From: an uncultured Candidatus Saccharibacteria bacterium
GTDB lineage: Bacteria > Patescibacteriota > Minisyncoccia > Sungbacterales > SURF-37
DNA length: 36,229 bases
Assembly (NCBI GenBank): GCA_964361655.1
Contig: CAYIBD010000002.1
Coordinates: 1 to 36,229 of the forward strand
Direction of reading: 5' to 3'
Positions 1 to 15,795 of the stretch are shown one piece after another. Under the pieces are notes generated by a model that was given only the letters and a program-made list of their open reading frames with translations, did not search any database and had not been told where the DNA came from. A program made the position numbers and the translations under genes. How positions within the stretch are numbered: the first letter of the stretch is position 1; every line of letters begins with the position of its first letter.

Positions 1-1
1 C

Positions 2-1822
2 TGGATCGCCGAGAAGATCGGGCAACTCACGTATAAAACCCTGGACGTCGCGACTGACCTCGTTACCGTTCCCTTTGTAACCATCGCCGGCGGGATTTTC
101 TCTCTAGCGGTAACCCTGGCCCTGCTGCCGATCTGGAACACTACCTTCGTTCAACTCGGTTCAGCCATCACCCTCGGGGTGGCCAACATGTTCTTTGTCT
201 TGATTCTCCTCTGGATTGCGATTGCCACCATCTTTGACTTTGAGCCCTACACGGCCCGGCGGCTCCTCCTCCGGCTCATCATTGCCGCACTCTTGATCAA
301 CTTTAGCGTGGCCATCGGCAGCTCCTTCATCCGGCTTTCGAACGCGATGGCCGACATCTTCTATAAGCAGATTGGCGGTAGTGCCATCGGCATTGGAGGA
401 GAGTTCATCAAGCTCTCGAAGTTCGCGCCCGTCAAAGACGCCACGCCGGGCAACCCAAAGACCGGACACCCGCCGGGGGTGCTGGCCGGCCTCCTGGGCT
501 ACCTCGTGCCTCCCTCCGGCAAGGACTTCAGCTTCACCGCCGGACTCCAGGCCATCATCGGCAAACTCGCGATCACGCCGGTCTTGATCTTTGTTCTGCT
601 CGCCGGGGCCTTTTTTCTCCTCGTCCGCCAAATCGCGCTCGCCTTTGTCCTGGTGCTTGCGCCGCTTGCCTTCCTGTTCATGATCCTGCCCCACACCCAG
701 CGCTTCACCAACGACTGGTGGGGAGCGCTCACCAAGTGGGCCTTCTTCTTCCCGGCCTTCATGTTCTTCCTCTTCCTCTCGCTCAAAACCGGCGGCGGGC
801 TCTTAAGCGCCTACACCGGCAATCAACAAGACCCGGTCTTGCTCCTGTTCCAATATTTCCTTGTCATCGGCCTCATGCTGGGTTCGCTCATTGTCTCGCA
901 CCAGATGGGCGTGTACGGCTCAAGCGCCATCATCAACTGGGGCAAGCGCTCCGCGGCCGCGGCCGGACGGTGGGCCGGGAGCCGCCTCCTCCTCCAGGCC
1001 ACCGCGCCGATCGCCAAGCGCGTGGAGGAAAGCCAAAGCCGTGCGGCGCGAGCCCTCATGAAGGTACCCTTCGTTCGCCGCGGCCTCCAGAGCTACACCG
1101 CGCTCGAGCGCGAGGAGGCCAAGCGCGTGAAGAGTCAGCTCGAGAAGTTCTCGAGCAGTGAACTCCAGCGCCGCTCCCGCGGCTTCGGCGCCACCCAGGC
1201 CGACCGCATAGCCATCGCCGACATCCTCATGGAACGTCGCGACCTTGCGCCGGAAAAGACCCCGACCGGCCAGTGGAAGAATAACTGGACGCCCGACATG
1301 GTGAAAAACACCATCGCCTACCAGCGCTCGATCGGCCGCGACGTTATCGGGCTTGAGCGCGCTGTCCCACACCTGGCGAAAGACACCCGGGCAACGGTCG
1401 CCGGCATGCGGGCGGAACACATTGACCGCATGGATCCGGCCGCACTCGATAATGTCGAAGTCCTCAAGGCCATCGCGGAGAACTGGAAGAGTGGCCAGTA
1501 TAGCCGCATGATGAGCTTTAGCCCGGTGATGGTGAAGAAGTTCCAGACCGCGGTTGAAGGCCGCCACCCTGACCTCGCACCAGGTGAAGCGCAGGCGCTC
1601 GCCGAAGAAATGATCGCCGCAATCAGGCGTGATCCGGGGACCCGCCAGTATTTCCAGGCCAGCGCCGGCCAAGGCTTCGGCTACGCGGTGCCGGGTGTAA
1701 CCGGCGTAACCACCGAAGTCACCCCTCGCGTCCGGACACCGCCTAGTGCAGGTGGGGAGACGCAGGAGGAATTCGAGGCCCGCCAGCGGATGCGTCAGCA
1801 GCTCGGACGACAGCAGCCCTAA
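2..1822 (+). CDS. Polytopic membrane protein, VirB6/TrbL-like T4SS component (5' end cut by the window edge)
   Basis: The frame of the listed 179..1822 ORF stays open back to nt 2: 59 sense codons and no stop, hand-translated as WIAEKIGQLTYKTLDVATDLV... The gene therefore begins upstream of the window. There are several hydrophobic helices in the first ~250 aa, followed by a ~300-aa hydrophilic tail. It is the first gene of an operon with PrgI-like, VirB4 and T4SS-pilin genes. The family call rests on topology and context, not on a motif. Confidence 0.45.
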   Translation, partial: WIAEKIGQLTYKTLDVATDLVTVPFVTIAGGIFSLAVTLALLPIWNTTFVQLGSAITLGVANMFFVLILLWIAIATIFDFEPYTARRLLLRLIIAALLINFSVAIGSSFIRLSNAMADIFYKQIGGSAIGIGGEFIKLSKFAPVKDATPGNPKTGHPPGVLAGLLGYLVPPSGKDFSFTAGLQAIIGKLAITPVLIFVLLAGAFFLLVRQIALAFVLVLAPLAFLFMILPHTQRFTNDWWGALTKWAFFFPAFMFFLFLSLKTGGGLLSAYTGNQQDPVLLLFQYFLVIGLMLGSLIVSHQMGVYGSSAIINWGKRSAAAAGRWAGSRLLLQATAPIAKRVEESQSRAARALMKVPFVRRGLQSYTALEREEAKRVKSQLEKFSSSELQRRSRGFGATQADRIAIADILMERRDLAPEKTPTGQWKNNWTPDMVKNTIAYQRSIGRDVIGLERAVPHLAKDTRATVAGMRAEHIDRMDPAALDNVEVLKAIAENWKSGQYSRMMSFSPVMVKKFQTAVEGRHPDLAPGEAQALAEEMIAAIRRDPGTRQYFQASAGQGFGYAVPGVTGVTTEVTPRVRTPPSAGGETQEEFEARQRMRQQLGRQQP

Positions 1823-1843
1823 TCACCGCAAAGCGGACCGCCC

Positions 1844-2821
1844 ATGCCCATTCACCCCCCGCCGGAAAAACTCCGAGAAACATTCGAGCAATTCTCTCCC
1901 GAGCTCCGCGGAGCTATTGCGGGCGTTGAAACCGCTAGCGCCATTTTCACCATTGCCGAGGCACACGGGCTCAACCGCGAAGATCTCCCGAAGTTCGCCG
2001 CCGAAGTCGGTCATGTCATGGGCGGGGTAGACCCGGCGCGGGACTTCGTCGCCATACTTTCCGAAGTGCTCCGCCTCCCGCTGGATCGAGCGCGAAAAGT
2101 CGCCGCCGAAGTAAAAACCAAAATCCTGATGCCGATTGATTCGCTGCTCCGGCCTATCCACGGTGCAAATTGGGCGAATGCAATTCTTGCCGAGCCGCTG
2201 CCACTGCCGCCGCGGCCGGTGACACAGCCGCCCCCAGCCGCGCCGGTTATGGCACGGCCGCCCGCACCTCCTCCACCACCTCCTGTCCCGGCCTTCGCTC
2301 CTAAGCCGTCCCTGCCGCAGCCGCCCAAATCGGTCCCGCCTCCGCTGCCGAAGCCCGCCCCACCTCCGCCATCAGGTCTTTCAAGGACGCCGCAACCCCT
2401 GATCATCCACCCCCTGCCGCGCGAACCCGAAGGCGAGCCCCCAACGGGCTTTCGGCCACTGCCGCCGCAAGAGCCGCCGGTGGCTCCTCAACCACCATTG
2501 CCAGAGGCAGCACCAATCATTGGGTCACGCGGTCTCCAGCCGCCACCGCTACCGGCTCCACCGGCCACCGGACTACCCCCGCCGCTAGCGCCCGGTAGTA
2601 AGCCGTCTTTGCCCACGCCGCCATCGCCGCACGTCATTACCAAAGAAGCCCTCCGCAGGGAAAAACCGGAGAAGGCCCTGCCGCCCTCCGCACTGATGTC
2701 GCAGCCAAGCGCAAGCGGCCCGCCCGCAAACCTGCCCACCACTGAACCGCCCCACCCGCCTTCGGCTCCCAGTGAACCGGCGCAGCATACCGTTGACCCC
2801 TACCGCGAGCCGGTGGAATAG
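1844..2821 (+). CDS. Proline-rich protein of unknown function (globular ~110-aa N-domain plus ~215-aa Pro-rich tail)
   Basis: 325-aa ORF starting 21 nt after the previous stop. The N-terminal part looks helical (ETFEQFSPELRGAIAGVETASAIFTIAEAHGL...). The remainder is dominated by PPxP/PxPP runs. No signal peptide or TM helix is visible. The antisense and out-of-frame ORFs here are GC artefacts. Confidence 0.6.
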   Translation: MPIHPPPEKLRETFEQFSPELRGAIAGVETASAIFTIAEAHGLNREDLPKFAAEVGHVMGGVDPARDFVAILSEVLRLPLDRARKVAAEVKTKILMPIDSLLRPIHGANWANAILAEPLPLPPRPVTQPPPAAPVMARPPAPPPPPPVPAFAPKPSLPQPPKSVPPPLPKPAPPPPSGLSRTPQPLIIHPLPREPEGEPPTGFRPLPPQEPPVAPQPPLPEAAPIIGSRGLQPPPLPAPPATGLPPPLAPGSKPSLPTPPSPHVITKEALRREKPEKALPPSALMSQPSASGPPANLPTTEPPHPPSAPSEPAQHTVDPYREPVE

Positions 2822-2823
2822 CC

Positions 2824-3294
2824 ATGCAGCAATTCCAAGTCCCCCAATTCATCGACATCGAGGACCGCATCGTGGGGCCGCTGACCCTGAAACAGTTTTT
2901 GTATCTTTTGGGCGCGGCCGGCGTCACGCTCCTCGGCTGGTTCTGGCTGAACCTCGTGCTCTTCGCCATCATTACCGTTCCCCTGGCTGCCCTGTTCCTC
3001 GCCATGGCGTTCTTGAAGGTGAACGGCGTACCGTTCCCAACGGTCTTTGCCAACGCCCTCAACTACTATCTCAAGCCGCGGCTCTACCTCTGGCAACACG
3101 TCCGGGAAACGCCGCGGGCGCGCCCCGCCGCGCCTCCGGGAGAGCCAGTGCCTCGAGCCGGCGGCGAGCATCCGTCGGACGCCTCCACCCTCACCCCCTC
3201 GATCGCCCCGCCCAAACCCTCCGGAGGCAAGCTCTCCAACCTCGCCTGGGCTCTTGATGTCCGAGAGCAACTAGACCGCCGCGAGGGACGGTAG
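2824..3294 (+). CDS. PrgI-family (VirB3-like) small T4SS membrane protein
   Basis: It starts 2 nt after the previous stop. The N-terminus MQQFQVPQFIDIEDRIVGPLTLKQFLYLLG, followed by two hydrophobic helices, matches the PrgI family pattern. It sits just upstream of the VirB4 gene, separated only by one short VirB4-N-domain-like ORF, close to the VirB3/PrgI position in Gram-positive-type T4SS loci. Confidence 0.6.
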   Translation: MQQFQVPQFIDIEDRIVGPLTLKQFLYLLGAAGVTLLGWFWLNLVLFAIITVPLAALFLAMAFLKVNGVPFPTVFANALNYYLKPRLYLWQHVRETPRARPAAPPGEPVPRAGGEHPSDASTLTPSIAPPKPSGGKLSNLAWALDVREQLDRREGR

Positions 3295-3318
3295 CGCTCG
3301 GGCCGCACTCTCACTCTA

Positions 3319-3999
3319 ATGGCCTCTCCATCCGCTCCACTCGCCTCTCGAAAAGCCAAATCTGCGCTGGCTGCACAGGAGTTCTTAACCATTGAAGAAA
3401 TCCGCGAGGATGTCCTGGTCTTGAAAGGGGGGCTCGGCCTCCGGGCGGTGCTCATGGCCTCGGCCCTGAACTTTGCCCTCAAGTCCGAGTTGGAACAGGA
3501 AGCCCTGACCTTCCAGTATGAGAACTTTCTGAACGCCCTTGATTTCCCGCTCCAGATCGTTGTCCAGTCGCGGCACCTCGACATTCGGCCCTACCTCGAA
3601 ACCCTCACCGGCCGCCAGAAGGAGGAGACGAACGAGCTCCTGAAAATCCAGATTGGCGAATACATCGAGTTCATCCGGACGTTCGTGGAGCTGACCAAAA
3701 TCGTTTCCAAGACCTTCTTCGTTGTCGTGCCCTTCCAGCCCTCCATAGCCGAGCGCCACGCCGGCGGGTTCTTAAAAGGGTTCCTCCGCGGCGGCGGGGA
3801 AGCCCCGCTCCCGAACGGCGGCCAAGAATTCGCCCAATACAAAACCCAGCTCCTCCAGCGCGTCGATACCGTTACCCTCGGACTGCGGCGCCTGGGGCTC
3901 CGCTCGATGCAGCTTAAGAGCGATGAGCTCATCGAGCTCTTCTACGGCCTGTATAACCCGGCCGAATCGCAGGCCGTACGCATCGTTGGCGAGGGCTAA
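3319..3999 (+). CDS. Stand-alone VirB4 N-terminal-domain-like protein
   Basis: 226-aa ORF. The segment EDVLVLKGGLGLRAVLMASALNFALKSELEQEALTFQYENFLNALDFPLQIVVQS follows the pattern I recall from the N-terminal domain of Firmicutes-type VirB4 ATPases such as Tn916 Orf16. There is no Walker motif. It ends 3 nt before the full VirB4 gene. Confidence 0.4.
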   Translation: MASPSAPLASRKAKSALAAQEFLTIEEIREDVLVLKGGLGLRAVLMASALNFALKSELEQEALTFQYENFLNALDFPLQIVVQSRHLDIRPYLETLTGRQKEETNELLKIQIGEYIEFIRTFVELTKIVSKTFFVVVPFQPSIAERHAGGFLKGFLRGGGEAPLPNGGQEFAQYKTQLLQRVDTVTLGLRRLGLRSMQLKSDELIELFYGLYNPAESQAVRIVGEG

Positions 4000-4002
4000 C
4001 CC

Positions 4003-5853
4003 ATGGCCTTACTCCCGTTTTTCAAAAAGAAAGAGCCGGCCGAGCCGAAAATTTTCTCGGTCTTCCCGAGCGGAACGCCGCAGGCGGGGCGAACGACGCT
4101 CCGCGACATTGTGGCGCCGGCCGCCCTGGAGATCAGCCCGAGCTTCGTGCGCCTCGGCGAAAAGTTCGTCCGCACCCTCTTCGTCTTCTCCTACCCGCGC
4201 TACCTCCACACCAACTGGTTCTCGCCCATCATTAACCTCGATAAGGTGTTCGATATCTCGTTTTTCATCCACCCGGTGGACACCGCCCTCGTGCTCCGCC
4301 AGCTGCGAAAGCAGGTGACCCGGGTGCAATCACAAATTTCCATGCGCCAGGAAAAGGGCCTGGTCCGCGATCCGGTGCTGGATACCGCCTACCGCGACCT
4401 CGAAGATCTCCGCGACAAGCTGCAGCAGGCGCGGGAAAAGCTCTTCAACTTCGGGCTCTACCTCACGCTCTACGGCTCGTCGGCCGATGAGCTCGACAAG
4501 CTCGAGAACGAGGTCCGCTCGGTGCTCGAGGCGCGGCTGGTCTACGTCAAGCCGGCGTTGTTCCAGCAAGCCGAGGGCTTCAACGCCGCCCTGCCGCTGA
4601 ACACGGATGAACTCGCCATCCATAGCTACCTCCCCTCCGGCCCGATCTCAAGTGCCTTCCCGTTCGTCTCCTTCGACCTCACCTCCTCGAACGGCATCCT
4701 CTACGGTATCAACCGGCACAATAACTCCCTGATCCTGTTTGATCGCTGGTCGCTCGAAAACGCAAACTCGGTAACCTTCGCGGTGTCCGGTGCGGGCAAG
4801 AGCTATGCCGCCAAGCTCGAGGTCTTGCGCTCACTCATGGTCGGGGCGGACGTCATCATCATTGACCCCGAGCGCGAGTACGAGTACCTGGCCGAAACCG
4901 TCGGCGGGGCCTACTTCAACATCTCCCTCACCTCCCCAAACCACATCAACCCCTTTGACCTCCCCACCCCGCGCGAGGACGAGGCGCCCTCGGACGTGCT
5001 CCGCTCCAACATCATCAACCTGATCGGCTTTTTCCGAATCCTCCTGGGCGGGCTCTCGCCGGAGGAGGATTCGATCCTGGATCGCGCCATCACCGAGACC
5101 TACGCCAGCCGGGACATCACCCCGGAGGTGGATTTTGGCACGGCCGTGCCGCCGACCATCGCCGACCTCGCCCTCGTCCTCGCCAACACCGAAGGCGGGG
5201 GGAGCTTGGCGGCACGCCTCAAAAAGTACACCGAGGGCACCTGGGCCGGATTTCTGAACCAGCAGACCAACCTCGACATCAAGAATCGCCTCGTCGTCTT
5301 CTCGGTCCGGGACATGGAGGAGGAGCTGCGGCCGGTGGCCATGTACATCGTCCTCCACTACATCTGGAACATCGTCCGCACCGAGCTGAAGAAGCGCCTC
5401 TTGGTCGTGGACGAGGCCTGGTGGCTGATGCGCCACGAGGACGGGGCCTCCTTCCTCTACGGCATTGCCAAGCGCGCCCGGAAGTACTTCCTCGGGCTCT
5501 CGACCATCACCCAAGATGTCGCCGACTTCATGACCTCGCCCTACGGCAAGCCGATTGTTACCAACTCCTCCATGCAGCTCCTCCTGAAGCAGTCGCCCGC
5601 AACCATCAAGGCCGTGGTGGAAACCTTCAACCTCACCGATGAGGAAAAGTTTCTGCTGCTCGAATGCGAGGTGGGAGAGGGAATTTTTTTCGCCGGCTTG
5701 AAGCACGTGGCCATCAAGGTCATCGCCTCCTACACCGAAGACCAAGTGATCACCTCGGATCCGGCCCAGCTCCTGCTGATCAAGAAAGCCAAAGAGGAAT
5801 TCGCAACCGCCCACCAGGGTGAGCGGAAAGACGCCCTGTCTCCTATGCCATGA
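4003..5853 (+). CDS. virB4: VirB4-family T4SS ATPase (TrsE/PrgJ-like)
   Basis: 616 aa. Walker A is FAVSGAGKSYAAK and Walker B is LLVVDEAWWLM. It has its own VirB4-type N-domain (VRTLFVFSYPRYLHTNWFSPIINL) and a C-terminal ITQDVADF motif region typical of the family. Confidence 0.88.
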   Translation: MALLPFFKKKEPAEPKIFSVFPSGTPQAGRTTLRDIVAPAALEISPSFVRLGEKFVRTLFVFSYPRYLHTNWFSPIINLDKVFDISFFIHPVDTALVLRQLRKQVTRVQSQISMRQEKGLVRDPVLDTAYRDLEDLRDKLQQAREKLFNFGLYLTLYGSSADELDKLENEVRSVLEARLVYVKPALFQQAEGFNAALPLNTDELAIHSYLPSGPISSAFPFVSFDLTSSNGILYGINRHNNSLILFDRWSLENANSVTFAVSGAGKSYAAKLEVLRSLMVGADVIIIDPEREYEYLAETVGGAYFNISLTSPNHINPFDLPTPREDEAPSDVLRSNIINLIGFFRILLGGLSPEEDSILDRAITETYASRDITPEVDFGTAVPPTIADLALVLANTEGGGSLAARLKKYTEGTWAGFLNQQTNLDIKNRLVVFSVRDMEEELRPVAMYIVLHYIWNIVRTELKKRLLVVDEAWWLMRHEDGASFLYGIAKRARKYFLGLSTITQDVADFMTSPYGKPIVTNSSMQLLLKQSPATIKAVVETFNLTDEEKFLLLECEVGEGIFFAGLKHVAIKVIASYTEDQVITSDPAQLLLIKKAKEEFATAHQGERKDALSPMP

Positions 5854-6536
5854 ACGGAAAGCGACTGACATCCGGAGGTGAGGGGGGCGATGCCTACGAG
5901 GAGCTTGCCCTCGAAGGCCTGCCGCCGACGGCCGCCGCACCGGAGGAACACTTCCGCATCCGCCTGAACTGGGTTCGGCGCCTGCCGCACTCGATCGACG
6001 AGGCGGTTATGGGCGCGGCCGAGGCGCTCGCCAACAAGCTCAACCGCGAAATTGAAATGGGGCACGATGTCATGGCCTTTACCATCGCCCTCCTCCTGGC
6101 GGCCGCCATGGACGGCCTTGATTGGGGTGTTACCCTACTTGCTGGACTCGTGGGTTTAATCCCGCTCATTGGTCAGGCGCTCGCCGCAGCCCTCCTCGCG
6201 GGCGGGCCCTATGTCAAGCTCTTCCTGTGGGCCTTTCTCACGTACTTCCTGTGGAGCAAGGGCTGGCTCCTGAAGTGGCGAGTGCGGTTGGGGCTCCGCA
6301 TCGGGTTATGGCTCCTGTCGTTCATCTTTGAGAACATCCCGGGGATCAATCTTTTGCCCTTGAATGTCATCACGGTCCTCTGGGCGTGGCGCAACGTCCG
6401 CCACGCCGCGGCCGAAGCCGAAGAGGACATGCGGAAGCTCGAGCGCGATCTTGAAGACCTGGCCGAAGAAGCGGCAGAGACCGAAGAGTCGGCGCCGATG
6501 CCGGAGGTTGCCCCCGCGCCCGCGGCCCAATCATGA
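5850..6536 (+). CDS. Integral membrane protein of unknown function (about 4 TM helices, acidic C-terminus)
   Basis: The ATGA start/stop overlap with virB4 at 5850..5853 implies translational coupling. Hydrophobic helices run from about aa 75 to 180. The tail is Glu-rich (EEDMRKLERDLEDLAEEAAETEE). Confidence 0.6.
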   Translation: MNGKRLTSGGEGGDAYEELALEGLPPTAAAPEEHFRIRLNWVRRLPHSIDEAVMGAAEALANKLNREIEMGHDVMAFTIALLLAAAMDGLDWGVTLLAGLVGLIPLIGQALAAALLAGGPYVKLFLWAFLTYFLWSKGWLLKWRVRLGLRIGLWLLSFIFENIPGINLLPLNVITVLWAWRNVRHAAAEAEEDMRKLERDLEDLAEEAAETEESAPMPEVAPAPAAQS

Positions 6537-7504
6537 ACCGAGGATTATCGCGTCTCCGTTCCCGTCTACTCGCTGCCGCCTTTTTTGCCGCGGCAGTAAC
6601 GGCGCTCCCCGCCGGATCACAGCCATCGCTCTTCACCCTCCGCACCTCCGCGCTTAACCCTGACCCCGGCACGGCCATTGAGCTTGAGGTGGTGAGCTCG
6701 GCCTTTGACCGCGCTGCCGCATCGTATCAGTGGTCAGTAAACGGGATCCCGGATTCGGGCCGGAGCGGCACGGGGAGGTACCAGGTCACGATCCCCGCCG
6801 GTGGCGATGGCGAGACGAAAAAAATCGCGGTCGCGGTGGCGACGACAACGGGCGGCCGAACCCAGCAAGCGTCCGTTACCGTACAGGCGGTGAGCGCGCC
6901 CCTGTACTGGTGGGCGGACACGGCCGTGCCGTATTGGTATAAGGGCAAGGCCCTCCCAACGCTCCATACCACGGTGACCGCCACGGCTCTCCCCAATATT
7001 CCGAATGCGGCGGCCTTAAACTACCGTTGGGAGTTCAACGGTGCCCTGATCCCGAGTAACTCGGGCGTCGGGAAAATGAGTGCCTCCTTCACGCTTGACT
7101 TCCCGGTGGAGGAACGGATCCGCGTCACCATGGAGCAGCTCCAGGGTTCGTTTAAGAAAGCGGCGGCCACGACCGCCAAGCCGCTGGCGCCGGCGGTCGC
7201 CATCTACGAGCTCCGGCCGCTCCGCGGCATCGTGTTCGAGCGCGCGCTCTCGACCTTCAGGGCGCTTGACGGAGAATCGTATGATTTCACCGCGCACTCA
7301 TTTTACCTTGGGACCAAACCGCAGGCCCTCTCCTACCGCTGGACCCTGAACAACCGGGAAATCGAGGGCGTGAGCGGAAAACCGTGGATCGTGAGCTTTA
7401 CCCCGAGCATTGCCGCCTCGAGCACAAACCAGCTTGCCGTAGAGGTTACGGATCCGGGAACGCCATTGGGCCGCGCCACCGCCGCCATTCGCATCGACCG
7501 CTAG
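6533..7504 (+). CDS. Secreted protein with three tandem ~100-aa beta-rich repeats
   Basis: ATGA overlap with the upstream gene. The N-terminus is signal-peptide-like (MNRGLSRLRSRLLAAAFFAAAVTALPAGSQ). A Y[QR]W-x-[VFL]N motif recurs at roughly 300-nt spacing: YQWSVNG near 6722, YRWEFNG near 7022, YRWTLNN near 7334. Confidence 0.6.
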   Translation: MNRGLSRLRSRLLAAAFFAAAVTALPAGSQPSLFTLRTSALNPDPGTAIELEVVSSAFDRAAASYQWSVNGIPDSGRSGTGRYQVTIPAGGDGETKKIAVAVATTTGGRTQQASVTVQAVSAPLYWWADTAVPYWYKGKALPTLHTTVTATALPNIPNAAALNYRWEFNGALIPSNSGVGKMSASFTLDFPVEERIRVTMEQLQGSFKKAAATTAKPLAPAVAIYELRPLRGIVFERALSTFRALDGESYDFTAHSFYLGTKPQALSYRWTLNNREIEGVSGKPWIVSFTPSIAASSTNQLAVEVTDPGTPLGRATAAIRIDR

Positions 7505-7514
7505 CTACCAGCGC

Positions 7515-7898
7515 ATGACCTCCCGCGCTCTCAATACCCTTCGGAGCACCGCCGGCCTCCTCCCCTGGCTTCTCGGGCCAGCGGTTACTTCGGCCACCAG
7601 CCACCAGCCGAACGCCTCCCAGTATCTCTCCGAACTTTACCTCTGGTTCCTGGGGTTCGTTGGCATTGCGGCACTCTTTGGCATTGTAACCGGCGGGGTG
7701 CTCTATATGTTCTCCGACAGCTTGACGGACACCAAGCATGCCAAGGACTGGATCTGGAACTCTATCGGCGGGATTGTGCTCGCCGCGTTCTCCTATCTCC
7801 TCCTCTATACCATCAGCCCGGACCTGGTGCAGGGGTTTGATATCCAAAAGATTATTACCAACGCCTGCCTAAAGCTCCCCACTCCTATTAGCTGCTAA
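7515..7898 (+). CDS. T4SS-type pilin (TrbC/VirB2-like; CPR T4SS_pilin family pattern)
   Basis: 127 aa with a signal-like N-terminus and then two hydrophobic helices flanking a short polar loop. The sequence FLGFVGIAALFGIVTGGVLYMFSD...HAKDWIWNSIGGIVLAAFSYLLLYTISPDLV matches the G-G-x-x-Y...AK...G-x-x-x-A pattern of the T4SS pilin family. Confidence 0.6.
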   Translation: MTSRALNTLRSTAGLLPWLLGPAVTSATSHQPNASQYLSELYLWFLGFVGIAALFGIVTGGVLYMFSDSLTDTKHAKDWIWNSIGGIVLAAFSYLLLYTISPDLVQGFDIQKIITNACLKLPTPISC

Positions 7899-7903
7899 CC
7901 GCT

Positions 7904-9076
7904 ATGAACCGGGTTGGGATCCTCATCTTCGGCGCGCTTGGCCTCCTGCTCCTCGGGGCTGGCGTCATTACCTACCTCACCCTCCGCGCCCCACCGCCGC
8001 CGCCTCCGCCGCCCGCACCCCCGCCTTCAGAGCTCCCCATCATCGGCGACCAGACCCCCACGGCTCCGCCCGGAGCAGGGACGCCGCCAACGCCCATCGC
8101 AGCGCTGCCCGGCGCGGAGCGCCCGTTGATCCAGGCCATTGATAAAGACATTGTCGGCCCAACGCTCGGCCGCGATAAACAATCCCTGTTCTACGCCCTC
8201 CGTGAGAACGGCCACCTCATGCAAGCTGACCTTGAGGGCCGGAATGAAACAACGCTCACGAACCTTACCGTGCCCGAGGTCTTTGACGTGGCCTGGTCGC
8301 CGTTAAAAACGCGGGCGGTGCTGGTGTACCACGAGGCCGGCGTGGTGAAAAAATTCCTCCAGCAGACCGCAACCACCTCGCCCTCGCGCTTCCTGCCTCA
8401 GGCACTGACGTCGCTTGCCTGGTCGCCCGACGGCCGGCAGATGGCCTACCTCCTGCCCCAAGGAGGAAAGTCAGCGCTCGTCATCGCGGACCAAAACGGA
8501 AAGAACGTGCGAACGGTGTATCAAACGCCGATCCCGGATTTCACGGTTCAATGGGTTTCGGCCAACACCATCCTCCTCGTCTCGCGGCCCTCCGGTCTTG
8601 CGCCAAGCTTAGTCCTCCGCTTTGACCTGAAGGCCAGAAGAACCACCACACTCCTTTCTAACATCGCCGGGGCCGTCCTCCTCGGGGCGCCTGACGGCAC
8701 CGGCGTTGTCTACTCGGCTTCAGGCCGAGGCGGCCGGCCAGAGCCGCTCCGGCTCCACACCCTCAAAGGTGCCACGACCGCTACCCTGCCGGTTACCACC
8801 GTCGCGGAGAAATGCGCGTTTTCCCCTGACTCGAAGCGCCTCTATTGCGGCGTGCCCAGAGCCACGATCCGGGCCGTGACGCCCGATGAGTGGTATCGGG
8901 GCGCGCTCTCATTCGTAGACGCCATCGTGAAAATTGATCTGGCCTCGGGCCGCGCCGAAATTATTGGCCGCGGCATTCCGGCGCTCGACGTTATCTCGCC
9001 CTTCCTCTCGGCTGATGAGAAGTTCTTCTTCTTCCAGGACAAAAAGACCGGGACAGTGTGGCGCGTTCAACTCTAG
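7904..9076 (+). CDS. Membrane-anchored TolB-like (PD40/WD40-like) beta-propeller protein with a polyproline spacer
   Basis: There is an N-terminal TM helix (ILIFGALGLLLLGAGVITYL) followed by PPPPPPPPAPPP. PD40-like repeats follow (WSPLKTRAVLVY, WSPDGRQMAYL, FSPDSKRLYCG). It is the last gene of the operon. Confidence 0.6.
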   Translation: MNRVGILIFGALGLLLLGAGVITYLTLRAPPPPPPPPAPPPSELPIIGDQTPTAPPGAGTPPTPIAALPGAERPLIQAIDKDIVGPTLGRDKQSLFYALRENGHLMQADLEGRNETTLTNLTVPEVFDVAWSPLKTRAVLVYHEAGVVKKFLQQTATTSPSRFLPQALTSLAWSPDGRQMAYLLPQGGKSALVIADQNGKNVRTVYQTPIPDFTVQWVSANTILLVSRPSGLAPSLVLRFDLKARRTTTLLSNIAGAVLLGAPDGTGVVYSASGRGGRPEPLRLHTLKGATTATLPVTTVAEKCAFSPDSKRLYCGVPRATIRAVTPDEWYRGALSFVDAIVKIDLASGRAEIIGRGIPALDVISPFLSADEKFFFFQDKKTGTVWRVQL

Positions 9077-9136
9077 GTCTCGCCTCCCGCATCTCACACC
9101 GGCGATACTCTGGCAGACGAACAAGTGAATAAAAAG

Positions 9137-9183
9137 AGCCCCGGAATCCAGAACCTTTTCGTCAGGTTTCTGGACCCGGGGCT
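9137..9183 (-). terminator. Intrinsic terminator between convergent operons
   Basis: The hairpin is AGCCCCGG-AATCCAGAACC / loop TTTTCGTC / AGGTTTCTGGA-CCCGGGGCT. On the minus strand it is followed by CTTTTTATT. There is no T-tract on the plus-strand side, so it mainly serves the 11858->9293 operon. Confidence 0.7.
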
Positions 9184-9292: not shown

Positions 9293-10588
9293 TCACCCGA
9301 CCTCGACGCGAAACTCCATCCGCACCCACTCCGCGTAGGCGCGGTCGCGGACGAACCGCTCCACGTCGCCGTTGAAGAGGATCACGAGCTCGAGCGGGAC
9401 ACTCGACTCGTTCCTCAACGCCATGGCGTCGCGCCCGCACTTCCACCCAACCGGCTCATGGTAGTGCCCCGGCTGGACGAGTAAGAGCGCAATGGCGTAC
9501 GGCCGGATACCGAGGAGGGGCGCCTTCAGGTTTTTCTCGGGCTCGGCACCGCAGACGCCGATCGGCCGGCCCTCCTTGTCGTAGGCGAGCGCTCCCGAGT
9601 CGTAGTGGACGCGCGCTGTCGCACCCGGCGGAACCATGATGGTGGTGCGGTGTCCGATGGCCTCTTGGTTCTTTCCGTTCGTGCCATCGATGGACACCCC
9701 CCAGGCGCTTGGCCCTATCGGCACTACGCGGGTTGCTCGCATGCGGCGGGCTTCGATCTCACGCTCGCGCTCCGAGGGACGCGGTGGAGCGACATATCGC
9801 GGTGGGGGAGGCGCGGCCTCGGCCCGCGGCATAACCGCAGGCGGCGGTGGCAGCGGTCTCTCTTTCCACACCGCCTCGTCGAGCAAAAGCGCTCCAATGA
9901 TGATGAGCGCCCCCACCCAAGCGAAGGTCAGGAACCTCGTCCGCCTGAAAATCCAGGCGAGCAGCACGGCGACCACAAGCCCGAACGTGGTCAGCCAGAA
10001 GAGCTCGCGGTTGCCGAGTTCAAGCGTGCCGCGCAGCCACTTGCCGACGCTACCGAGGATCCCGGCCTCTTCGCCGTTCTCCTGGAACGCGAGGCACTTC
10101 TCGCGGAACTCGGCGTCGCGTCGAATTTGCGCCGCGAGCTCCTTATGCCTTTGCTCGAAGACCTCGCGCGAGATGCCACGCGCCTGGAGGAGCCGCTCGA
10201 GCTCAGATGCGATGGCATCGGTCTTTCCCGCTTCCGTACGCTCGAAGGTGTCGCAGAGCCGCCGGAGCACGAGGTACTCCGGCAACCCATGGACTCGTCC
10301 CCGCTCTGCACCGACGATGTCGGTCCACACCGTCCGTTGATGCGTGGCCTGGCGGATACGAGGGAACCGTTCGAGCACGCCGTTCCACAGGGTCGGTAGG
10401 CCGATGAAAAGCACCACCCACCCGATAAAGATGACCGTCGCGAACCGCCGGTACGCCGGCAGGAGCTGGACCAACGCGATGGCGCCGCCGAGGGCCAGGA
10501 TCGCGAGCCCGACCCAGACGCTGCCGATTAGCCCGGCGAAACGGAGAAAGAAAACAATCGGAATCGCCCACAACCAATTCCAGTTCAT
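9293..10588 (-). CDS. Multi-pass membrane protein with a cytoplasmic helical region, a Pro-rich linker and a C-terminal beta-rich (lectin/PA-IL-like?) domain; unknown function
   Basis: 431 aa. The ATG at 10588 is preceded by GGAGGAGG and lies 3 nt after the upstream stop. TM helices lie at about aa 1-75 and 196-245. A PLPPPPAVMPRAEAAPPPPRYVAPPRP linker follows, then a ~150-aa beta-rich C-domain ending ...LELVILFNGDVERF..WVRMEFRVEVG. The fold guess is weak. Confidence 0.65.
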   Translation of the reverse strand: MNWNWLWAIPIVFFLRFAGLIGSVWVGLAILALGGAIALVQLLPAYRRFATVIFIGWVVLFIGLPTLWNGVLERFPRIRQATHQRTVWTDIVGAERGRVHGLPEYLVLRRLCDTFERTEAGKTDAIASELERLLQARGISREVFEQRHKELAAQIRRDAEFREKCLAFQENGEEAGILGSVGKWLRGTLELGNRELFWLTTFGLVVAVLLAWIFRRTRFLTFAWVGALIIIGALLLDEAVWKERPLPPPPAVMPRAEAAPPPPRYVAPPRPSEREREIEARRMRATRVVPIGPSAWGVSIDGTNGKNQEAIGHRTTIMVPPGATARVHYDSGALAYDKEGRPIGVCGAEPEKNLKAPLLGIRPYAIALLLVQPGHYHEPVGWKCGRDAMALRNESSVPLELVILFNGDVERFVRDRAYAEWVRMEFRVEVG

Positions 10589-10591
10589 GGC

Positions 10592-11149
10592 CTACCTCCT
10601 CCCTCGATGGGTGATCAGGTTTGCAATTGTGGCGCCCAGGATCTCCCGGAGCGTCACCCAGAACTGTCCAAACAACCCATGGACTATCTCGCCCGCGCCT
10701 GCCGCAGTTCTTCCCGTTGCGGGCGTAGCGGGCGGTGCGCCGCCAGTTGCCGGACTGCCGCGTCGTTCACGGACCCATCGCACTCCTGCTCGCCAGGCGC
10801 GACCGAATTCGTCGAACCGGCTAACGGGAATGTAGATGACGCTCACGACGAACAACACCCCCCATACAGCCCACGACCACCAACGGAGCTGCGCCCAGAG
10901 CGACCCCGCCGCTTCCCAAAACCACCACGGCGGATTGAGCTCGCGGTCAGTGGCGAACCGGCCGCGGAACTCGAGGTTGTTGTAGCGCTGGACTTCCTCC
11001 GCGATAGGGAAGAAATCCGTGGCCGGCCCAAACCCGAAGAAGGTCAGGTTTAACAGGAGGAGGGCCAGGACGAACACCCAGAGCGCCTTGAGACGGAAGT
11101 TGTTGTCGTTCCCGAGACGGTATCCGAAACGCCACAGAAAGTCAGCCAT
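10592..11149 (-). CDS. Trp-rich two-TM membrane protein, unknown function
   Basis: I moved the start from the listed 11191 to the ATG at 11149 (MADFLWRF...). This ATG sits 1 nt after the upstream TAG (11151..11153) and 5 nt after GGAGGAG. The C-terminal tail is EIVHGLFGQFWVTLREILGATIANLITHRGRR. Confidence 0.6.
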   Translation of the reverse strand: MADFLWRFGYRLGNDNNFRLKALWVFVLALLLLNLTFFGFGPATDFFPIAEEVQRYNNLEFRGRFATDRELNPPWWFWEAAGSLWAQLRWWSWAVWGVLFVVSVIYIPVSRFDEFGRAWRAGVRWVRERRGSPATGGAPPATPATGRTAAGAGEIVHGLFGQFWVTLREILGATIANLITHRGRR

Positions 11150-11150
11150 G

Positions 11151-11858
11151 CTATCTCCTCCGATCTCCCACCCCTTGCATGATGCTAGCAAGGAGCGTCC
11201 GGAACAGGCCGTGAACCGCAGGGGGCCTTACAGGAACCGTTGCCGCCGGACGTCTGAACTTCGAGGGGCCCTGGAGATTCTTAATTTCCTGTTCGAACCC
11301 GGGAACCTGAATCGTCACGTCAGCCTCGGGCTCGGTGAAAACGAGAGGCAACGACACGAAGCCGCTGGCATCCGTCACCTTATCAGTGACGTCCGCGCCC
11401 GGGCGACCAAGCCGCGAGACAAGGAACCGGACCGGAATGCCGCCTGCGGGTCTGCCCGCCCTGCGGGCGAGTGACCCGGAGATGGTGAACTCCCCCTCAT
11501 CGCCGCCGGCGTGGAAATTTGGCTGCAGAAGTTCCAGAATCGCCCGCTCAAAGGTATGGCGGTAGGTCACAGGGAGCCCACCGAGCTGGACCGAGATCAC
11601 GTGCGTCCCGAAGCCGAGACCAGCGTACGTGTAGGATACGCGGCCGTGGTCATCAGTCGGGTGCGCATGCATCTCGTCCGCCCCCAGCCAAAAGGTGATC
11701 GTCTCGCCGCGGATGGGATCCTGCGGCCGTCCCCGCTCGTCCTGCGTCAGAATCGCGGTGGCTAGGATGCTGCCACCGGTTTCGCTCGGCTGCGGGGTCG
11801 GCTCAAACGTGAGCCGCACGCGGCCAAGCCCAGCAATGATGGCGCTCGCTTGTGGCAT
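11151..11858 (-). CDS. Protein with two Ig-like (Big_1/invasin-like) beta-sandwich repeats, no signal peptide; unknown function
   Basis: 235 aa with AGGAGGAAACCACC-ATG at 11858. Two segments follow the usual bacterial Ig-like pattern: ATAILTQDERGRPQDPIRGETITFWLG...TDDHGRVSYTYA and FTISGSLARRAGRPAGGIPVRFLVS...TDASGFVSLPLVF. The C-terminal tail is AVHGLFRTLLASIMQGVGDRRR. Confidence 0.6.
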   Translation of the reverse strand: MPQASAIIAGLGRVRLTFEPTPQPSETGGSILATAILTQDERGRPQDPIRGETITFWLGADEMHAHPTDDHGRVSYTYAGLGFGTHVISVQLGGLPVTYRHTFERAILELLQPNFHAGGDEGEFTISGSLARRAGRPAGGIPVRFLVSRLGRPGADVTDKVTDASGFVSLPLVFTEPEADVTIQVPGFEQEIKNLQGPSKFRRPAATVPVRPPAVHGLFRTLLASIMQGVGDRRR

Positions 11859-11957: not shown

Positions 11958-11986
11958 ATCCTATAACTTTTCAATAAAAAAGTCAA
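11958..11986 (-). promoter_or_regulatory. Candidate sigma70-type promoter of the 11858->9293 operon
   Basis: The minus strand reads TTGACT (11986..11981), a 17-nt spacer, then TAGGAT (11963..11958). It lies in an AT-rich patch about 100 nt upstream of the ATG. Confidence 0.35.
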
Positions 11987-12011: not shown

Positions 12012-12037
12012 AAATCAAAAACGGCCCATTTCCTGGG
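12012..12037 (-). terminator. Weak intrinsic terminator after jag
   Basis: The minus strand reads GCCCA-GGAAA-TGGGC followed by CGTTTTTGATTT. The stem is only 5 bp. Confidence 0.3.
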
Positions 12038-12073
12038 CGTTCCGCTGCCACGTCACGCTTGCCGCTTTTGACC

Positions 12074-12541
12074 TTACGGGTAGGGCTTGATGACCACTCT
12101 CCGCGACTCGCCCTCACCCACGGACTGGGTGATGATATCCGGGTACTCGGCGAGCGCCATATGGATGATGCGGCGCTCAAAGGGCGACATGGGCTTCAGG
12201 GCAAGCTCGGTGCGGTAGAGGCGCACCTTCCGGGCGATGTTCTTGGCCTCGGCCTTCAGTTCCTCAATGCGGTGGAGGCGGTAGCCGTTCACGTCTAAAA
12301 AGAAGCCGGTAGCCACCTCCGGACTCGCTTTCTCCAGCAGCCGCCGCAAGAGGTATTCGAGCGCCATGAGGTTCCGGGCGCGCGCGCCGATCAAAAGCCG
12401 CGCCTCGTCGGTGATGATGTTGACGTAGGGGATGGAGAGGTCGGGGATGGTTCGCTCTTCGACATCGGCGCTGACACCCATCTTCTCAAGCGTCGCGTTG
12501 ATGTGCTCGCAGATCACGCTCATGCTTGATGCGTCGCTCAA
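12074..12541 (-). CDS. jag: Jag/KhpB-like RNA-binding protein (KH + R3H domains)
   Basis: The KH-like segment is LLIGARARNLMALEYLL. The R3H-like segment is LKPMSPFERRIIHMALAEYPDIITQSVGEGESRRVVIKP. The position downstream of yidC is classical. The start is uncertain: 12541 overlaps yidC by 56 nt, and 12523 is an alternative. Confidence 0.8.
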   Translation of the reverse strand: MSDASSMSVICEHINATLEKMGVSADVEERTIPDLSIPYVNIITDEARLLIGARARNLMALEYLLRRLLEKASPEVATGFFLDVNGYRLHRIEELKAEAKNIARKVRLYRTELALKPMSPFERRIIHMALAEYPDIITQSVGEGESRRVVIKPYP

Positions 12542-13944: not shown

Positions 13945-14074
13945 ACCCTGATCCTGCTGCGAACCTTCCCAGTATACCGCGTCGCTCGAGCGCACCCAAG
14001 CGTTGTCGTGGCGCCAGCAATAACACCGTTCTCAGGGTTAGGAAGAAGTTGTTCTAGTTTTGACACTTCCCATC

Positions 14075-14095
14075 TTCTCCACAAGTTGTGAACAA
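14075..14095. promoter_or_regulatory. Inverted pair of DnaA-box-like 9-mers upstream of dnaA
   Basis: TTCTCCACA (14075..14083) has one mismatch to TTATCCACA. TGTGAACAA (14087..14095) is the reverse complement of TTGTTCACA. The two are 3 nt apart. Confidence 0.4.
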
Positions 14096-14203
14096 ATCGG
14101 ATGGTTAAGCCGTCTTTCTCCCCACCGCAGTTACCGCTATAGTGTTAAAGAATACGTGAGGGCCCCGTTCAACCGCTCATCCGCACTACTTTTGATAACG
14201 CGT

Positions 14204-15601
14204 ATGCCGCCGCAGGTTATGGTCAACCACGAGGAGGTCTGGAAAAACGTACTGGCTGAACTTGAGGTCTCCATCTCTCGGGCCAGCTTCATCACGTGGT
14301 TCAAAGAAACAACCATCGCCGATGTTTCCAATGGCGTCGTCACCGTCTCGGTTCCCAATGGCTTTGCCAAGAACTGGCTCCAGGATAAATACCATAAGGT
14401 GATCCTGCGTTCGCTCCGGAGTGCGCTCGATGATATCCGCGAGGTCGGCTACGTCGTGGGGCCGATGCGGCACCTCCCGTCATCCAGCCGCGTAAAGCCG
14501 CGGGCTCCGGTGCGGCCCGTGCTCCTCGAGGTTCCCCAAGAGCGCCTCGATCTCAAAGATTCGGCTGTTGATCCCGAGAGCGGCCTCAACCCCCGCTACC
14601 GCTTCGATAACTTTGTTGTCGGATCATTCAACGAACTCGCCCACGCCGCTGCCGTGGCAGTCACCAAGAATCCCGGCACGACGTATAATCCCCTCTTCAT
14701 CTACGGCGGCGTTGGTCTCGGGAAAACCCACCTCATCCAGGCCATCGGCAATGAGGTCTTGAAAGAGCGCCCGGCCGCCCGGGTCCGCTACCTCCCCTCG
14801 GAGAAGTTTATGGGCGAAATTGTCGATGCCATCAATGATAGGAGTATGAACCAGCTCAAAGAGCGCTACCGGGGCGTGGACCTCTTGGCTATGGATGACA
14901 TCCAGTTCATCGCGCGCACCGAGAAGATGCAGGAAGAGTTCTTCCACGCCTTCAACGCTCTCTATGAACGGAATAAGCAGATTGTCATCTCCTGCGACAA
15001 GCCGCCGGCGGCCATCCCAACCCTTGAATCGCGCCTCCGCTCGAGGTTCGAAGGTGGAATGATCGCCGACATCGGCACGCCGGACCTCGAGACGCGTCTT
15101 GCTATTCTTAAATTAAAACTCAAAGGTAAGAGCGTTGCCATGGACGAGGCAGTGTTGCGGTACGTGGCGGAAAGCATAACCACGAACATCCGCGATCTGG
15201 AAGGGACGCTGAACCGCCTCATTCTTCGGAGCCAAATGAGCGCTCAACCGATTGACGTTGAGGAGGTAAAAAAGATCATGGCCCAGGTGGCGGCCGCACC
15301 TCGCCGCTTCATTTCACCAAAAAAAATCATTCGTATCGTCTCTGAGTTTTACGACGTGACCGAACGGGAAATCATGAACCACAGCCGGAAAAAAGAAATT
15401 GTTAAGCCGCGGCAGATTGCCATGTACCTCCTCCGCGAGGAACTTAAATGCTCGTTCCCATTCATTGGTGAAAAGTTGGGTAAGAAAGACCACACCACCG
15501 CCATCCACGCCTATAAAAAGGTGGTGGGCGCTCTTGCCTCCAATCCGGAGCTGGATAACGAGTTAAAGGCGCTGCGTGAAAAAATTTATTCTCCTGGGTA
15601 A
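14204..15601 (+). CDS. dnaA: Chromosomal replication initiator protein DnaA
   Basis: Walker A is GGVGLGKTHL. It also has LLAMDDIQF, the sensor region and a C-terminal DnaA-box-binding helix (HTTAIHAYKKV). The start is ambiguous. The ATG at 14204 gives MPPQVMVNHEEVW. The ATG at 14219 gives MVNHEEVWKNVL, which places the conserved Trp where B. subtilis DnaA has it. The listed TTG at 14060 is an unlikely extension. Confidence 0.96.
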   Translation: MPPQVMVNHEEVWKNVLAELEVSISRASFITWFKETTIADVSNGVVTVSVPNGFAKNWLQDKYHKVILRSLRSALDDIREVGYVVGPMRHLPSSSRVKPRAPVRPVLLEVPQERLDLKDSAVDPESGLNPRYRFDNFVVGSFNELAHAAAVAVTKNPGTTYNPLFIYGGVGLGKTHLIQAIGNEVLKERPAARVRYLPSEKFMGEIVDAINDRSMNQLKERYRGVDLLAMDDIQFIARTEKMQEEFFHAFNALYERNKQIVISCDKPPAAIPTLESRLRSRFEGGMIADIGTPDLETRLAILKLKLKGKSVAMDEAVLRYVAESITTNIRDLEGTLNRLILRSQMSAQPIDVEEVKKIMAQVAAAPRRFISPKKIIRIVSEFYDVTEREIMNHSRKKEIVKPRQIAMYLLREELKCSFPFIGEKLGKKDHTTAIHAYKKVVGALASNPELDNELKALREKIYSPG

Positions 15602-15795
15602 TACTTGCGGATAGGTACTGGAGAAACAACAACATAGTGTAGTACGCTTAAAAAAAGTTTTCAACCACCCCCATCCCACTAACAGTTTTTAGAATTGTTA
15701 TCTTTACATCAAATCTTAAAAACAAACCATTTTTATTACCGTAATCGCACTCATCCACACCTTTTTATCCCAACAACAATAACAAGTAGTTATGT
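15602..15795. other. Candidate oriC / DNA-unwinding region (AT-rich dnaA-dnaN spacer)
   Basis: This ~190-nt spacer is strikingly AT-rich in a GC-rich genome (CTTAAAAAAAGTTTTC, AAATCTTAAAAACAAACCATTTTTATTACC). DnaA-box-like sites are TCATCCACA (15751..15759) and TTATCCCAA (15765..15773). Confidence 0.5.

Follow-up and report, generated by a model that had tools for sequence, protein, structure and literature searches.

Patescibacteria's type IV secretion system (T4SS) is the first T4SS that has been shown to be essential for the growth of its bearer (Southlakia; reviewed in PMC12857230). A survey of these systems reported about 2,500 virB4 genes across Patescibacteria, detected no adhesin and few homologues of VirB1 or VirB8, and described recG as typical of the T4SS loci of the ABY1 class (PMC12102498). 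A further point of reference is QseE (GlrK), whose four-helix-bundle sensor binds the lipoprotein QseG; its description mentions no disulfide and states that the sensor domain is unannotated in InterPro (PMC12691602). The stretch of DNA considered here, referred to as the window, comprises positions 1 to 36,229 of contig CAYIBD010000002.1 from an uncultured Candidatus Saccharibacteria bacterium sampled from the groundwater of Hainich well H51 (0.1-um filter fraction; ENA ERZ1292643, among others). On its minus strand at 11858..9293 are three adjacent genes, A, B and C, that converge on a Patescibacteria-type T4SS operon. Their products are undescribed in the literature examined on Patescibacterial T4SSs. 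The conserved order of the genes, the tight gaps between them and the purifying selection on all three support the trio as a dedicated, co-inherited unit. Since it recurs beside VirB2-type pilin genes or a T4SS operon, its likeliest role is that of an accessory to the T4SS/pilus contact apparatus. The reading preferred here, held tentatively and at a little less than even confidence, is that this accessory serves surface recognition or anchoring.

Protein C was compared with 1.84 billion cluster representatives in an exhaustive HMMER scan (E <= 1e-3). The 50 relatives identified put its family at about 50 clusters, defined at 50% identity. Word-indexed homologue searches returned just 2–4 relatives per protein, and a profile search added one more. 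Nine family members were examined on their contigs, some of which carry too little flanking sequence. Wherever the flank suffices, C is preceded by a Big_1-like protein A and a protein B of 184–249 aa. The A-B-C order is kept in 10 loci including the window, the nine others representing at least seven other lineages, with GC contents of 0.37–0.63 and intergenic gaps from -8 to +19 nt. An earlier note on this DNA (the original prediction) had described the trio as a translationally coupled operon of unknown function, a claim that it would have given up if the three genes were not syntenic in any other genome; the order recurs in all nine of the other loci. The closest named relative of C is MBI4132531.1 from a metagenome-assembled genome (MAG) of Candidatus Sungbacteria (Parcubacteria group), with 44% identity over the matched stretches. 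When aligned with the proteins of one of the other loci (L006), C is 25% identical, B 46–51% and A 51–56% (the ranges reflecting different alignments), indicating that C evolves fastest. The ratios of nonsynonymous to synonymous substitution against the orthologues of a second locus (L001) are 0.20 for A, 0.24 for B and 0.21 for C, consistent with purifying selection on all three genes.

Further searches for the trio were less productive. Scans of GTDB species genomes with patterns derived from B and A gave no confirmed trio, and a scan of JGI metagenomes gave two loci, both duplicates of lineages already found. No paralogues of A, B or C were found elsewhere in the window. None of the three proteins matched a PADLOC model at E <= 0.1, PHROGs and NCBIfam likewise gave no match, a Foldseek search against viral structures produced none, and single proteins searched against PDB sequences matched at chance level. 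The original prediction had been unable to place any of the three proteins in a family. This holds for B and for the membrane core of C, for which Pfam, NCBIfam, PHROGs and PADLOC offer no named match, and no longer for the remainder: A is Big_1-like, the helical domain of C gives a borderline match to QseE, and the C-terminal head of C is weakly lectin-like. The trio defines three new protein families without a Pfam or NCBIfam model.

The gene boundaries were taken from the open reading frames (ORFs). Gene A (11858..11151, minus strand) encodes 235 aa, gene B (11149..10592, minus strand) 185 aa from its ATG, and gene C (10588..9293, minus strand) 431 aa. The mechanical ORF of gene B opens with the TTG codon at 11191, but the Shine-Dalgarno (SD) site and the amino termini of the homologues favor the ATG at 11149. 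The SD sites AGGAGGA, GGAGGAG and GGAGGAGG precede the ATG codons of A, B and C, respectively, by 5–7 nt. For A the sequence is gcAGGAGGAaaccaccATG. The A/B junction (tcGGAGGAGaTAGcATG) reads TAG-c-ATG, a gap of 1 nt, and the B/C junction (gGGAGGAGGTAGgccATG) reads TAG-gcc-ATG, a gap of 3 nt. Three coupled minus-strand genes with GGAGGA-type SD sites and gaps of 1 and 3 nt, as originally described, can all be read directly in the sequence. Three ORFs of 163–264 aa on the opposite strand overlap genes B and C (9605-10399, 9636-10340 and 10344-10835, plus strand). These are almost certainly not genes, given that they are Arg/Pro/Gly-rich as expected in high-GC DNA and that the pattern of conservation fits the minus-strand frames.

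The trio appears to be transcribed separately. The jag gene (R3H) ends at 12074 and is followed by a terminator-like hairpin (12038..12024). Downstream of the hairpin, within the 215-bp spacer between jag and gene A, is a promoter-like match to the consensus, TTGACT-17-TAGGAT (11986..11958, minus strand), found once against 0.4 expected in shuffled sequence. At the other end, a predicted intrinsic terminator (9183..9128, minus strand) consists of a 47-nt hairpin (9183..9137) with a dG of -32.3 kcal/mol followed by CUUUUUAUU, and the fold of the whole intergenic region has a z score of -5.6. Read on the plus strand, this hairpin has a poor U tract, which makes sharing of the terminator with the convergent operon no more than plausible. 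The promoter-like site and the strong hairpin of the original prediction are thus present, while its shared terminator is reduced to this plausibility. A conserved 99–100-aa ORF (MEL...GRASHVVFLPA..PIPV...) with a hydrophobic segment at each end is situated directly 5' of gene A in two other loci (L006:595-894 and L015:8152-8454) and is absent from the 215-bp spacer of the window; it may be an optional fourth component.

A VirB2-like pilin gene is found no more than two genes from the trio in most lineages with visible flanks. In the window and in loci L001 and L008, the convergent neighbors are a propeller gene and a VirB2-type pilin gene. The contigs of L006 and L015 end inside the convergent propeller gene, so that no pilin gene is visible there. 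In L020 and L021, whose C proteins are ~24–29% identical to that of the window, a pilin gene is directly convergent to the trio (PF18895, E 5.6e-5 and 2.4e-8) and is the only visible flank. Locus L013 (GC 0.43), which comes from the same well H51, presents a different arrangement. Here the trio is on the same strand as, and in between, a gene for a 268-aa pilin-domain protein immediately upstream and three more pilin genes within five genes downstream. No virB4 is visible in the L013 locus; its protein A carries a coiled-coil insert and its protein C an SLT domain. Beyond the window, a fragment of virB4 was detected only in L001; the contigs of L008, L006 and L015 stop short of the gene, and L002 and L003 are contigs of the window organism itself.

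That the trio adjoins pilin genes in two distinct arrangements favors a functional tie over shared ancestry alone, although the independent lineages are few. The linkage to a T4SS that had been raised as a possibility is borne out in so far as adjacency to pilin genes recurs beyond the window; that the trio and the T4SS may work together is suggested by gene order. The same loci may be explained in another way. The trio could be a stand-alone envelope module, such as a sensor or anchor of the cell wall or a surface glycan, that has no working tie to the T4SS and sits beside it by oriC-proximal synteny in a small, gene-dense genome. The window, L001, L006, L008 and L015 represent one ancestral arrangement beside jag/yidC, and adjacency within this clade could be inherited synteny of this kind. 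A promoter-like site and terminator of its own, together with the convergent orientation of the T4SS operon, imply that the trio is not co-transcribed with the latter. At about 50 clusters in 1.84 billion representatives, compared to the ~2,500 virB4 genes, the C family is much scarcer than the T4SS of Patescibacteria, and the trio is not one of the general components of that system. In addition, the lineage of L009 and L018 has recG downstream of the trio, a gene for a 401-aa protein upstream, and no pilin in the ~5 kb of flank at hand; recG, as noted above, is reported to be typical of T4SS loci of the ABY1 class. A stand-alone module fits poorly with L013, where pilin genes adjoin the trio in a different arrangement and genomic setting, and with the diverged L020 and L021, where the one flank in view is a convergent pilin gene. 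It is regarded as a possible though doubtful explanation.

The wider setting of the trio in the window is that of a chromosomal origin. The gene order is PBP1 - dnaN - dnaA - (rnpA) - yidD - yidC - jag - A - B - C, followed by the convergent T4SS operon. The GC content falls from ~0.62 to 0.47–0.56 in 14001-16000, around dnaA (14060-15601) and the dnaA-dnaN spacer. This dip fits a replication origin and makes the region of the trio and the T4SS operon oriC-proximal. The base composition of the trio is the same as that of its flanks, and no tRNA or Rfam families were found across the 36 kb. The T4SS operon (179..9076, plus strand) encodes, from the trio-proximal end, a TolB-like propeller, a VirB2-type pilin, a secreted protein of 323 aa, a membrane protein of 228 aa, VirB4, a TraC/TrsD-like protein, a PrgI/VirB3-like protein, a Pro-rich protein of 325 aa and a VirB6/TrbL-like protein. 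The pilin gene (7515..7898, plus strand; PF18895, E 7.3e-6) is therefore the second-to-last gene of the convergent operon and not a part of the trio operon. Four genes separate gene C from the VirB4 gene (4003-5853). This places the trio within 20 coding sequences of virB4, the distance that defines a T4SS gene cluster of the Patescibacteria (MPF-FATA-like) type, and the operon of the window is of the oriC-proximal MPF-FATA-like type described for Patescibacteria (PMC12102498). A Pfam scan of the locus identified no VirD4 coupling protein.

Some further features of the window deserve mention. The 325-aa protein (1844-2821), encoded by the second gene of the T4SS operon, is extremely Pro-rich over ~200 residues and has no family match. 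Its poly-Pro stalk is similar to those of the propeller (7904-9076) and of protein C, and all three may be wall-spanning spacers. At 24366-26030 on the minus strand is a gene for a PilB-like ATPase of the type IV pilus/type II secretion system class (T2SSE, E 2.3e-115, with an MshEN domain), which indicates that the organism encodes type IV pilus machinery too, ~13 kb from the T4SS locus. Beside it is an ORF of 390 aa (26035-27207) with no Pfam match.

Some of the loci also carry genes of a defence or toxin-antitoxin type near the trio: AbiEii in L013 (11737-12306), a HicB-like antitoxin in L019 (352-612) and PDDEXK_3 in L006 (3545-3835). These neighbors lend some color to the idea that a mobile or defence island carries the trio as cargo. 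The absence of PADLOC and PHROGs matches, the lack of integrase genes or repeats, the stable position beside jag and the T4SS in the window clade, the native base composition and the purifying selection on all three genes all run counter to it, and an island origin is considered very improbable. Small genes located between the trio and its T4SS or pilin neighbors in L006 and L013 suggest that the junction tolerates insertions. In the Candidatus Sungbacteria MAG locus L008, a gene for an SLT lytic transglycosylase (7701-8408, minus strand) lies between jag and the trio, divergent to gene A; it echoes the SLT domain that is fused to C in protein P0025 (L013:10001-11632). The L013 contig also begins with a GyrA gene (1-4377) that contains an intein bearing a LAGLIDADG endonuclease, according to precomputed Pfam hits.

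Protein C is the largest member of the trio. An AlphaFold2 model calculated from a 52-sequence alignment had a mean predicted local distance difference test score (pLDDT) of 76.7; a single-sequence model (mean pLDDT = 52) was discarded as unusable. From the model and hydropathy, five transmembrane (TM) helices are assigned: TM1 (aa. 3-17), TM2 (24-41), TM3 (47-74), TM4 (193-214) and TM5 (219-241). Between TM3 and TM4 is a four-helix domain (10366..10013, minus strand; aa. 75-192) that was delineated from the model and from profiles, with helices at 76-97, 101-135, 141-173 and 179-190. The part conserved in the family is residues 1-243, to which most matches are confined; the C-terminal domains that follow differ by lineage. 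Five or so TM helices, a helical segment of ~120 aa, a Pro-rich linker and a beta C-domain had been foreseen from the sequence, and hydropathy and AlphaFold2 agree. The placement of the helical segment in the cytoplasm did not stand.

This placement was inconsistent with the remainder of the proposed topology. TM4 and TM5 form a hairpin with a loop of only 4–6 residues (FRRTRF), which means that the helical segment and the beta domain after TM5 face the same side of the membrane. Four lines of evidence point to that side being the outside. Across 46 family members, the net charge of the short loop 42-49 is +1.65 and that of loop 213-220 is +1.98, against a neutral helical domain, as expected from the positive-inside rule if the helical domain is external. 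Of these members, 31 have both Cys112 and Cys165, 15 have neither, and none has one without the other. In the model, the turn that joins the two long antiparallel helices is 26 residues away from one of the two Cys and 27 away from the other, on opposite sides. Co-occurrence and placement together are the signature of a disulfide and thus of an oxidizing, extracytoplasmic location. The number of Cys residues in the tail domains is mostly even. Third, in P0025 an SLT lytic transglycosylase domain (Pfam E 3.3e-32) follows the shared core, with one additional TM hairpin in between, which points to the outside. The fourth line is the borderline profile match to the periplasmic sensor of QseE described below. 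The helical segment (75-192) is almost certainly extracytoplasmic and probably stapled by Cys112-Cys165, a topology that is strongly supported, and the amino terminus of C is predicted to be inside.

A search of the C-family profile against the PDB gave QseE/GlrK as the best match (9m08_C, E 1.1e-3). Profile positions 48-219, covering TM3, the helical domain and TM4, align to residues 7-194 of QseE, which cover TM1, the periplasmic four-helix-bundle sensor and TM2. Structures of the isolated QseE sensor match the C profile more weakly (9M07, chain 9m07_A, E 0.019; 8JWD, E 0.1). A hidden Markov model restricted to the helical domain scored 21.2 bits against the QseE sensor, compared to a maximum of 12.5 bits in 2000 composition-matched shuffles. 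The family-conserved residues R85, D90, E95 and C112 of C align with R49, D54, E59 and C76 of QseE in an R-x4-D-x4-E-x16-C pattern, and QseE has a second Cys at a spacing similar to that of the pair in C (C76, C126). Remote homology between the two domains is considered probable, on a match that is borderline once the size of the database is corrected for. The C family may be the first detected non-kinase relative of the QseE sensor domain, which would offer a distant link between that previously unannotated domain and a family outside the kinases.

Protein C is not a histidine kinase. Neither HisKA nor HATPase_c gave a Pfam match in the C protein of the window or in 46 family members, and the cytoplasmic loop of 4–6 residues after TM4 sets it apart from a sensor histidine kinase in the same way. 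Weak matches to DUF4131/ComEC and Wzy_C, each in 2 of 46 members, were rejected as noise from TM composition. A paralogous relationship to VirB6 was likewise rejected, since there was no TrbL/VirB6 Pfam match in 46 members and hhalign gave a probability of 0.6% against the VirB6-like protein of the locus.

The likeness to QseE, which senses by way of QseG, raises the possibility that the trio is a kinase-less signalling device. The helical bundle and head of C would sense host contact or wall damage and pass a signal through B to A, gating or positioning the T4SS or pilus. Head domains that vary by lineage, the conserved cytoplasmic tail of B and the adjoining T4SS genes are compatible with such a device. 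Neither A, B nor C has a known output domain, the QseE similarity is borderline and there is no precedent, which together make signalling of this type quite improbable.

Beyond TM5, a Pro-rich disordered stalk (9862..9734, minus strand; aa. 243-285) comprises PLPPPPAVMPRAEAAPPPPRYVAPPRP and, after it, a short helix (273-284). The disordered linker itself covers residues 242-272, with a pLDDT below 50 at 252-268. The stalk carries the head (9733..9296, minus strand; aa. 286-431), a predicted beta-sandwich with a conserved Cys pair. AlphaFold2 places the beta domain at residues 286-430 with mixed accuracy (pLDDT = 42–95 per 10-residue block). Foldseek on an AlphaFold model, the check that had been proposed with the original prediction, yielded for C a weak lectin-like match to the head, and in the PDB no match for the membrane core. 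The head was most similar to 6ygq_D, the PllA-like N-terminal lectin domain of EclA (E 2.3e-3, TM score 0.58 on the target), followed by PliG (4dzg, E 8.2e-3) and PllA (5ofz_A, E 8.7e-3). For 5ofz_A and 5odu_A the ranges were E 0.009–0.014 and TM scores of 0.49–0.52 on the target. PF07828 gave no Pfam match to the head at E <= 0.1 and a profile of the domain searched against the PDB performed at chance level; the likeness to PllA and LecA is therefore at the level of fold.

The head domain is shared by four other proteins of 244–464 aa (P0022, P0027, P0030 and P0044), in which it is borne by other membrane anchors. It is recognized by the motifs W.VSIDG[ST]N and GH.TGI and the conserved Cys pair, and those four proteins have an extra segment, Y.TPDGQ.H.DGFAYAGWDG, that the head of the window lacks. 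From this distribution, the domain is best described as a mobile surface module. The head may well bind glycan, a suggestion that is helped by the SLT domain in the equivalent place in P0025.

Protein B, with 185 aa, has two hydrophobic segments that are predicted to be TM helices, a Trp-rich loop and an Arg-rich tail. Trp makes up 7% of the protein, and W76, W85 and W93 of the loop are conserved. With the motifs NNF, FNLVVFGFG and IYIPIAFRDE.SRAWR...RERRGS, B is the most conserved of the trio in terms of motifs. The basic amino terminus (NNF) and the very basic, Arg-rich carboxy terminal tail are likely cytoplasmic, with the Trp-rich loop facing outward. Two TM helices and a Trp-rich composition agree with the initial description, in which part of the loop quoted was in fact the start of TM2. 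No match for B was found in Pfam, NCBIfam, PHROGs, PADLOC or the PDB, where a profile search performed at chance level. A relationship with the 228-aa membrane protein of the T4SS operon was rejected, as hhalign detected none.

Protein A is leaderless and, over 235 aa, consists of a Big_1-like Ig domain, a second domain of Ig-like pattern, an NL.GPS+..+P motif and a C-terminal amphipathic helix. The first domain of the window protein (Pfam stretch, aa. 46-94) scored 22.7 bits (E 1.1e-4) against Big_1 (PF02369), short of the cutoff of 34.9. Among 11 family members, eight have a Big_1 match at E <= 0.01 (6.4e-8 for the strongest), and weak PDB matches are to Big_1 proteins, intimin and SiiE. The second domain (~110-200) is Ig-like by its sequence pattern, with weak MG4 matches in two members and, for residues 124-185, a non-significant match to a C4 MG-domain (E 0.23). 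BLAST detected no internal duplication in A. Of the two Ig-like repeats first proposed, one is Big_1-like and the other is unconfirmed. In two lineages (L013 and L019), a coiled-coil insert of 150–170 aa separates the two domains. The amphipathic helix often ends in basic residues, although the proteins of L006, L008 and L015 end in acidic or neutral ones. The original prediction of no export signal was upheld. The ORF finder begins at the first start codon after a stop, which leaves no hidden N-terminal signal peptide upstream in A, and neither a signal peptide nor a hydrophobic amino terminus is present in any of 11 homologues.

The location of A is the point at which the trio could be read differently. 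Big_1 domains typically belong to surface adhesins (invasin and intimin, for example), and A may be a leaderless Ig-like adhesin or substrate that is exported by the T4SS, or by a translocon or anchor made of B and C, with its C-terminal motif and basic tail as the signal. The conserved C-terminal GPS+..+P motif and amphipathic helix, often with a basic end, in 11 homologues that have no signal peptide would suit such a signal, and the long coiled-coil spacers of the L013 and L019 proteins would be consistent with a stalk. An adhesin of this type would also correspond to the one that was not found for Patescibacterial T4SSs (PMC12102498). Opposed to export are the absence of Cys pairing in A (the window protein contains no Cys), the loss of the basic tail in L006, L008 and L015, the missing VirD4 and the lack of a precedent for translocons resembling B and C. 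Nor does A have the signal peptide, autotransporter or LPXTG context of display in the manner of invasin and intimin. Export of A is judged rather unlikely.

The preferred reading, a surface recognition or anchoring accessory, may be stated as a mechanism. A, B and C would be subunits of one cytoplasmic-membrane complex that is specific to a subset of Patescibacteria (Parcubacteria group). C would be its outward-facing part, made up of the disulfide-stapled four-helix bundle, the TM4-TM5 hairpin, the stalk and a head that varies by lineage: a PllA/LecA-like beta-sandwich in the window, most likely glycan-binding, and an SLT domain in another Hainich organism. B would act as a two-TM adaptor that couples C to A. 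A would attach to the inner side of the membrane through its conserved C-terminal amphipathic helix and provide an Ig-like scaffold, extended by a coiled coil in some lineages. The complex would recognize, anchor to or remodel glycan, of the cell's own wall or of a host surface, where the T4SS or pilus works. The topology has strong support; that the three proteins form a complex, that its ligand is a glycan and that it works with the T4SS are proposed by inference. Similarly, the dedicated membrane complex of the original prediction is upheld as far as a co-inherited unit goes, and a physical complex is suggested by gene order.

Several points weigh against this reading. Besides separate transcription, the rarity of the C family, the pilin-free flanks of L009 and L018 and the possible inheritance of synteny in the window clade, there are the borderline QseE match and the likewise borderline lectin-fold match of the head (E 2.3e-3, TM score 0.5–0.6). 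In addition, Big_1 domains are normally extracellular and a poor fit to a cytoplasmic A.

On balance, the trio is rated as a candidate T4SS-associated envelope accessory that is built from recognizable folds in a known type of locus. A bolder proposal is that it is a kinase-less, three-subunit host-contact receptor of ultra-small epibiotic bacteria, in which interchangeable heads, whether lectin-like, lytic transglycosylase or other, on a QseE-like bundle would read or grip the surface of a host or wall and signal through B to a cytoplasmic Ig-like or coiled-coil scaffold, A, that positions or gates the essential T4SS or pilus, or else that A is the missing leaderless adhesin. This is unlikely; demonstration of a receptor or adhesin function in epibiotic contact would make the locus considerably more interesting. 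If the accessory role is correct, the Patescibacteria T4SS, whose substrates, adhesins and wall-spanning parts are largely undescribed, gains a candidate surface-recognition set. The trio is then a concrete candidate for how some Parcubacteria recognize or grip a surface.

The trio may finally be compared with the described systems that it resembles in part. Like C, VirB6/TrbL and "extended VirB6" proteins are polytopic, with ~5 TM helices, a large extracytoplasmic loop and, in some, large hydrophilic extensions; unlike a member of that family, C shows no detected homology to them and belongs to a locus that already encodes a VirB6-like protein. The Big_1 domains of invasin and intimin-type proteins are comparable to the first domain of A, which in contrast belongs to a leaderless protein without Cys pairs and, in the window, scores below the gathering threshold. 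In the QseE/GlrK sensor module (9M07, 9M08, 8JWD), as is predicted for C, two TM helices flank an extracytoplasmic helical domain of ~120 aa. C differs in having no HAMP, DHp or catalytic kinase domain; three TM helices precede its bundle where QseE has one, and TM4 is followed by a short loop, TM5 and an external domain. The PllA and LecA lectins, the N-terminal domain of EclA and PliG are, like the predicted head of C, small beta-sandwiches of about 120–150 aa. Unlike the lectins, the head is tethered by a Pro-rich stalk and has its own Cys pair and SIDG[ST]N motif. The VirB1-type wall hydrolases, PrgK of pCF10 and TraG of pIP501, present a peptidoglycan-active domain outside the cell on a membrane anchor encoded beside T4SS genes. 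P0025 does the same, with an SLT domain on the C core and a gene that lies amid pilin genes. The C protein of the window, which is without an SLT, CHAP or other muralytic domain, departs from these hydrolases in its lectin-like head, in an anchor made of five TM helices and a four-helix bundle instead of a single TM helix, and in coming with the obligatory partners A and B.

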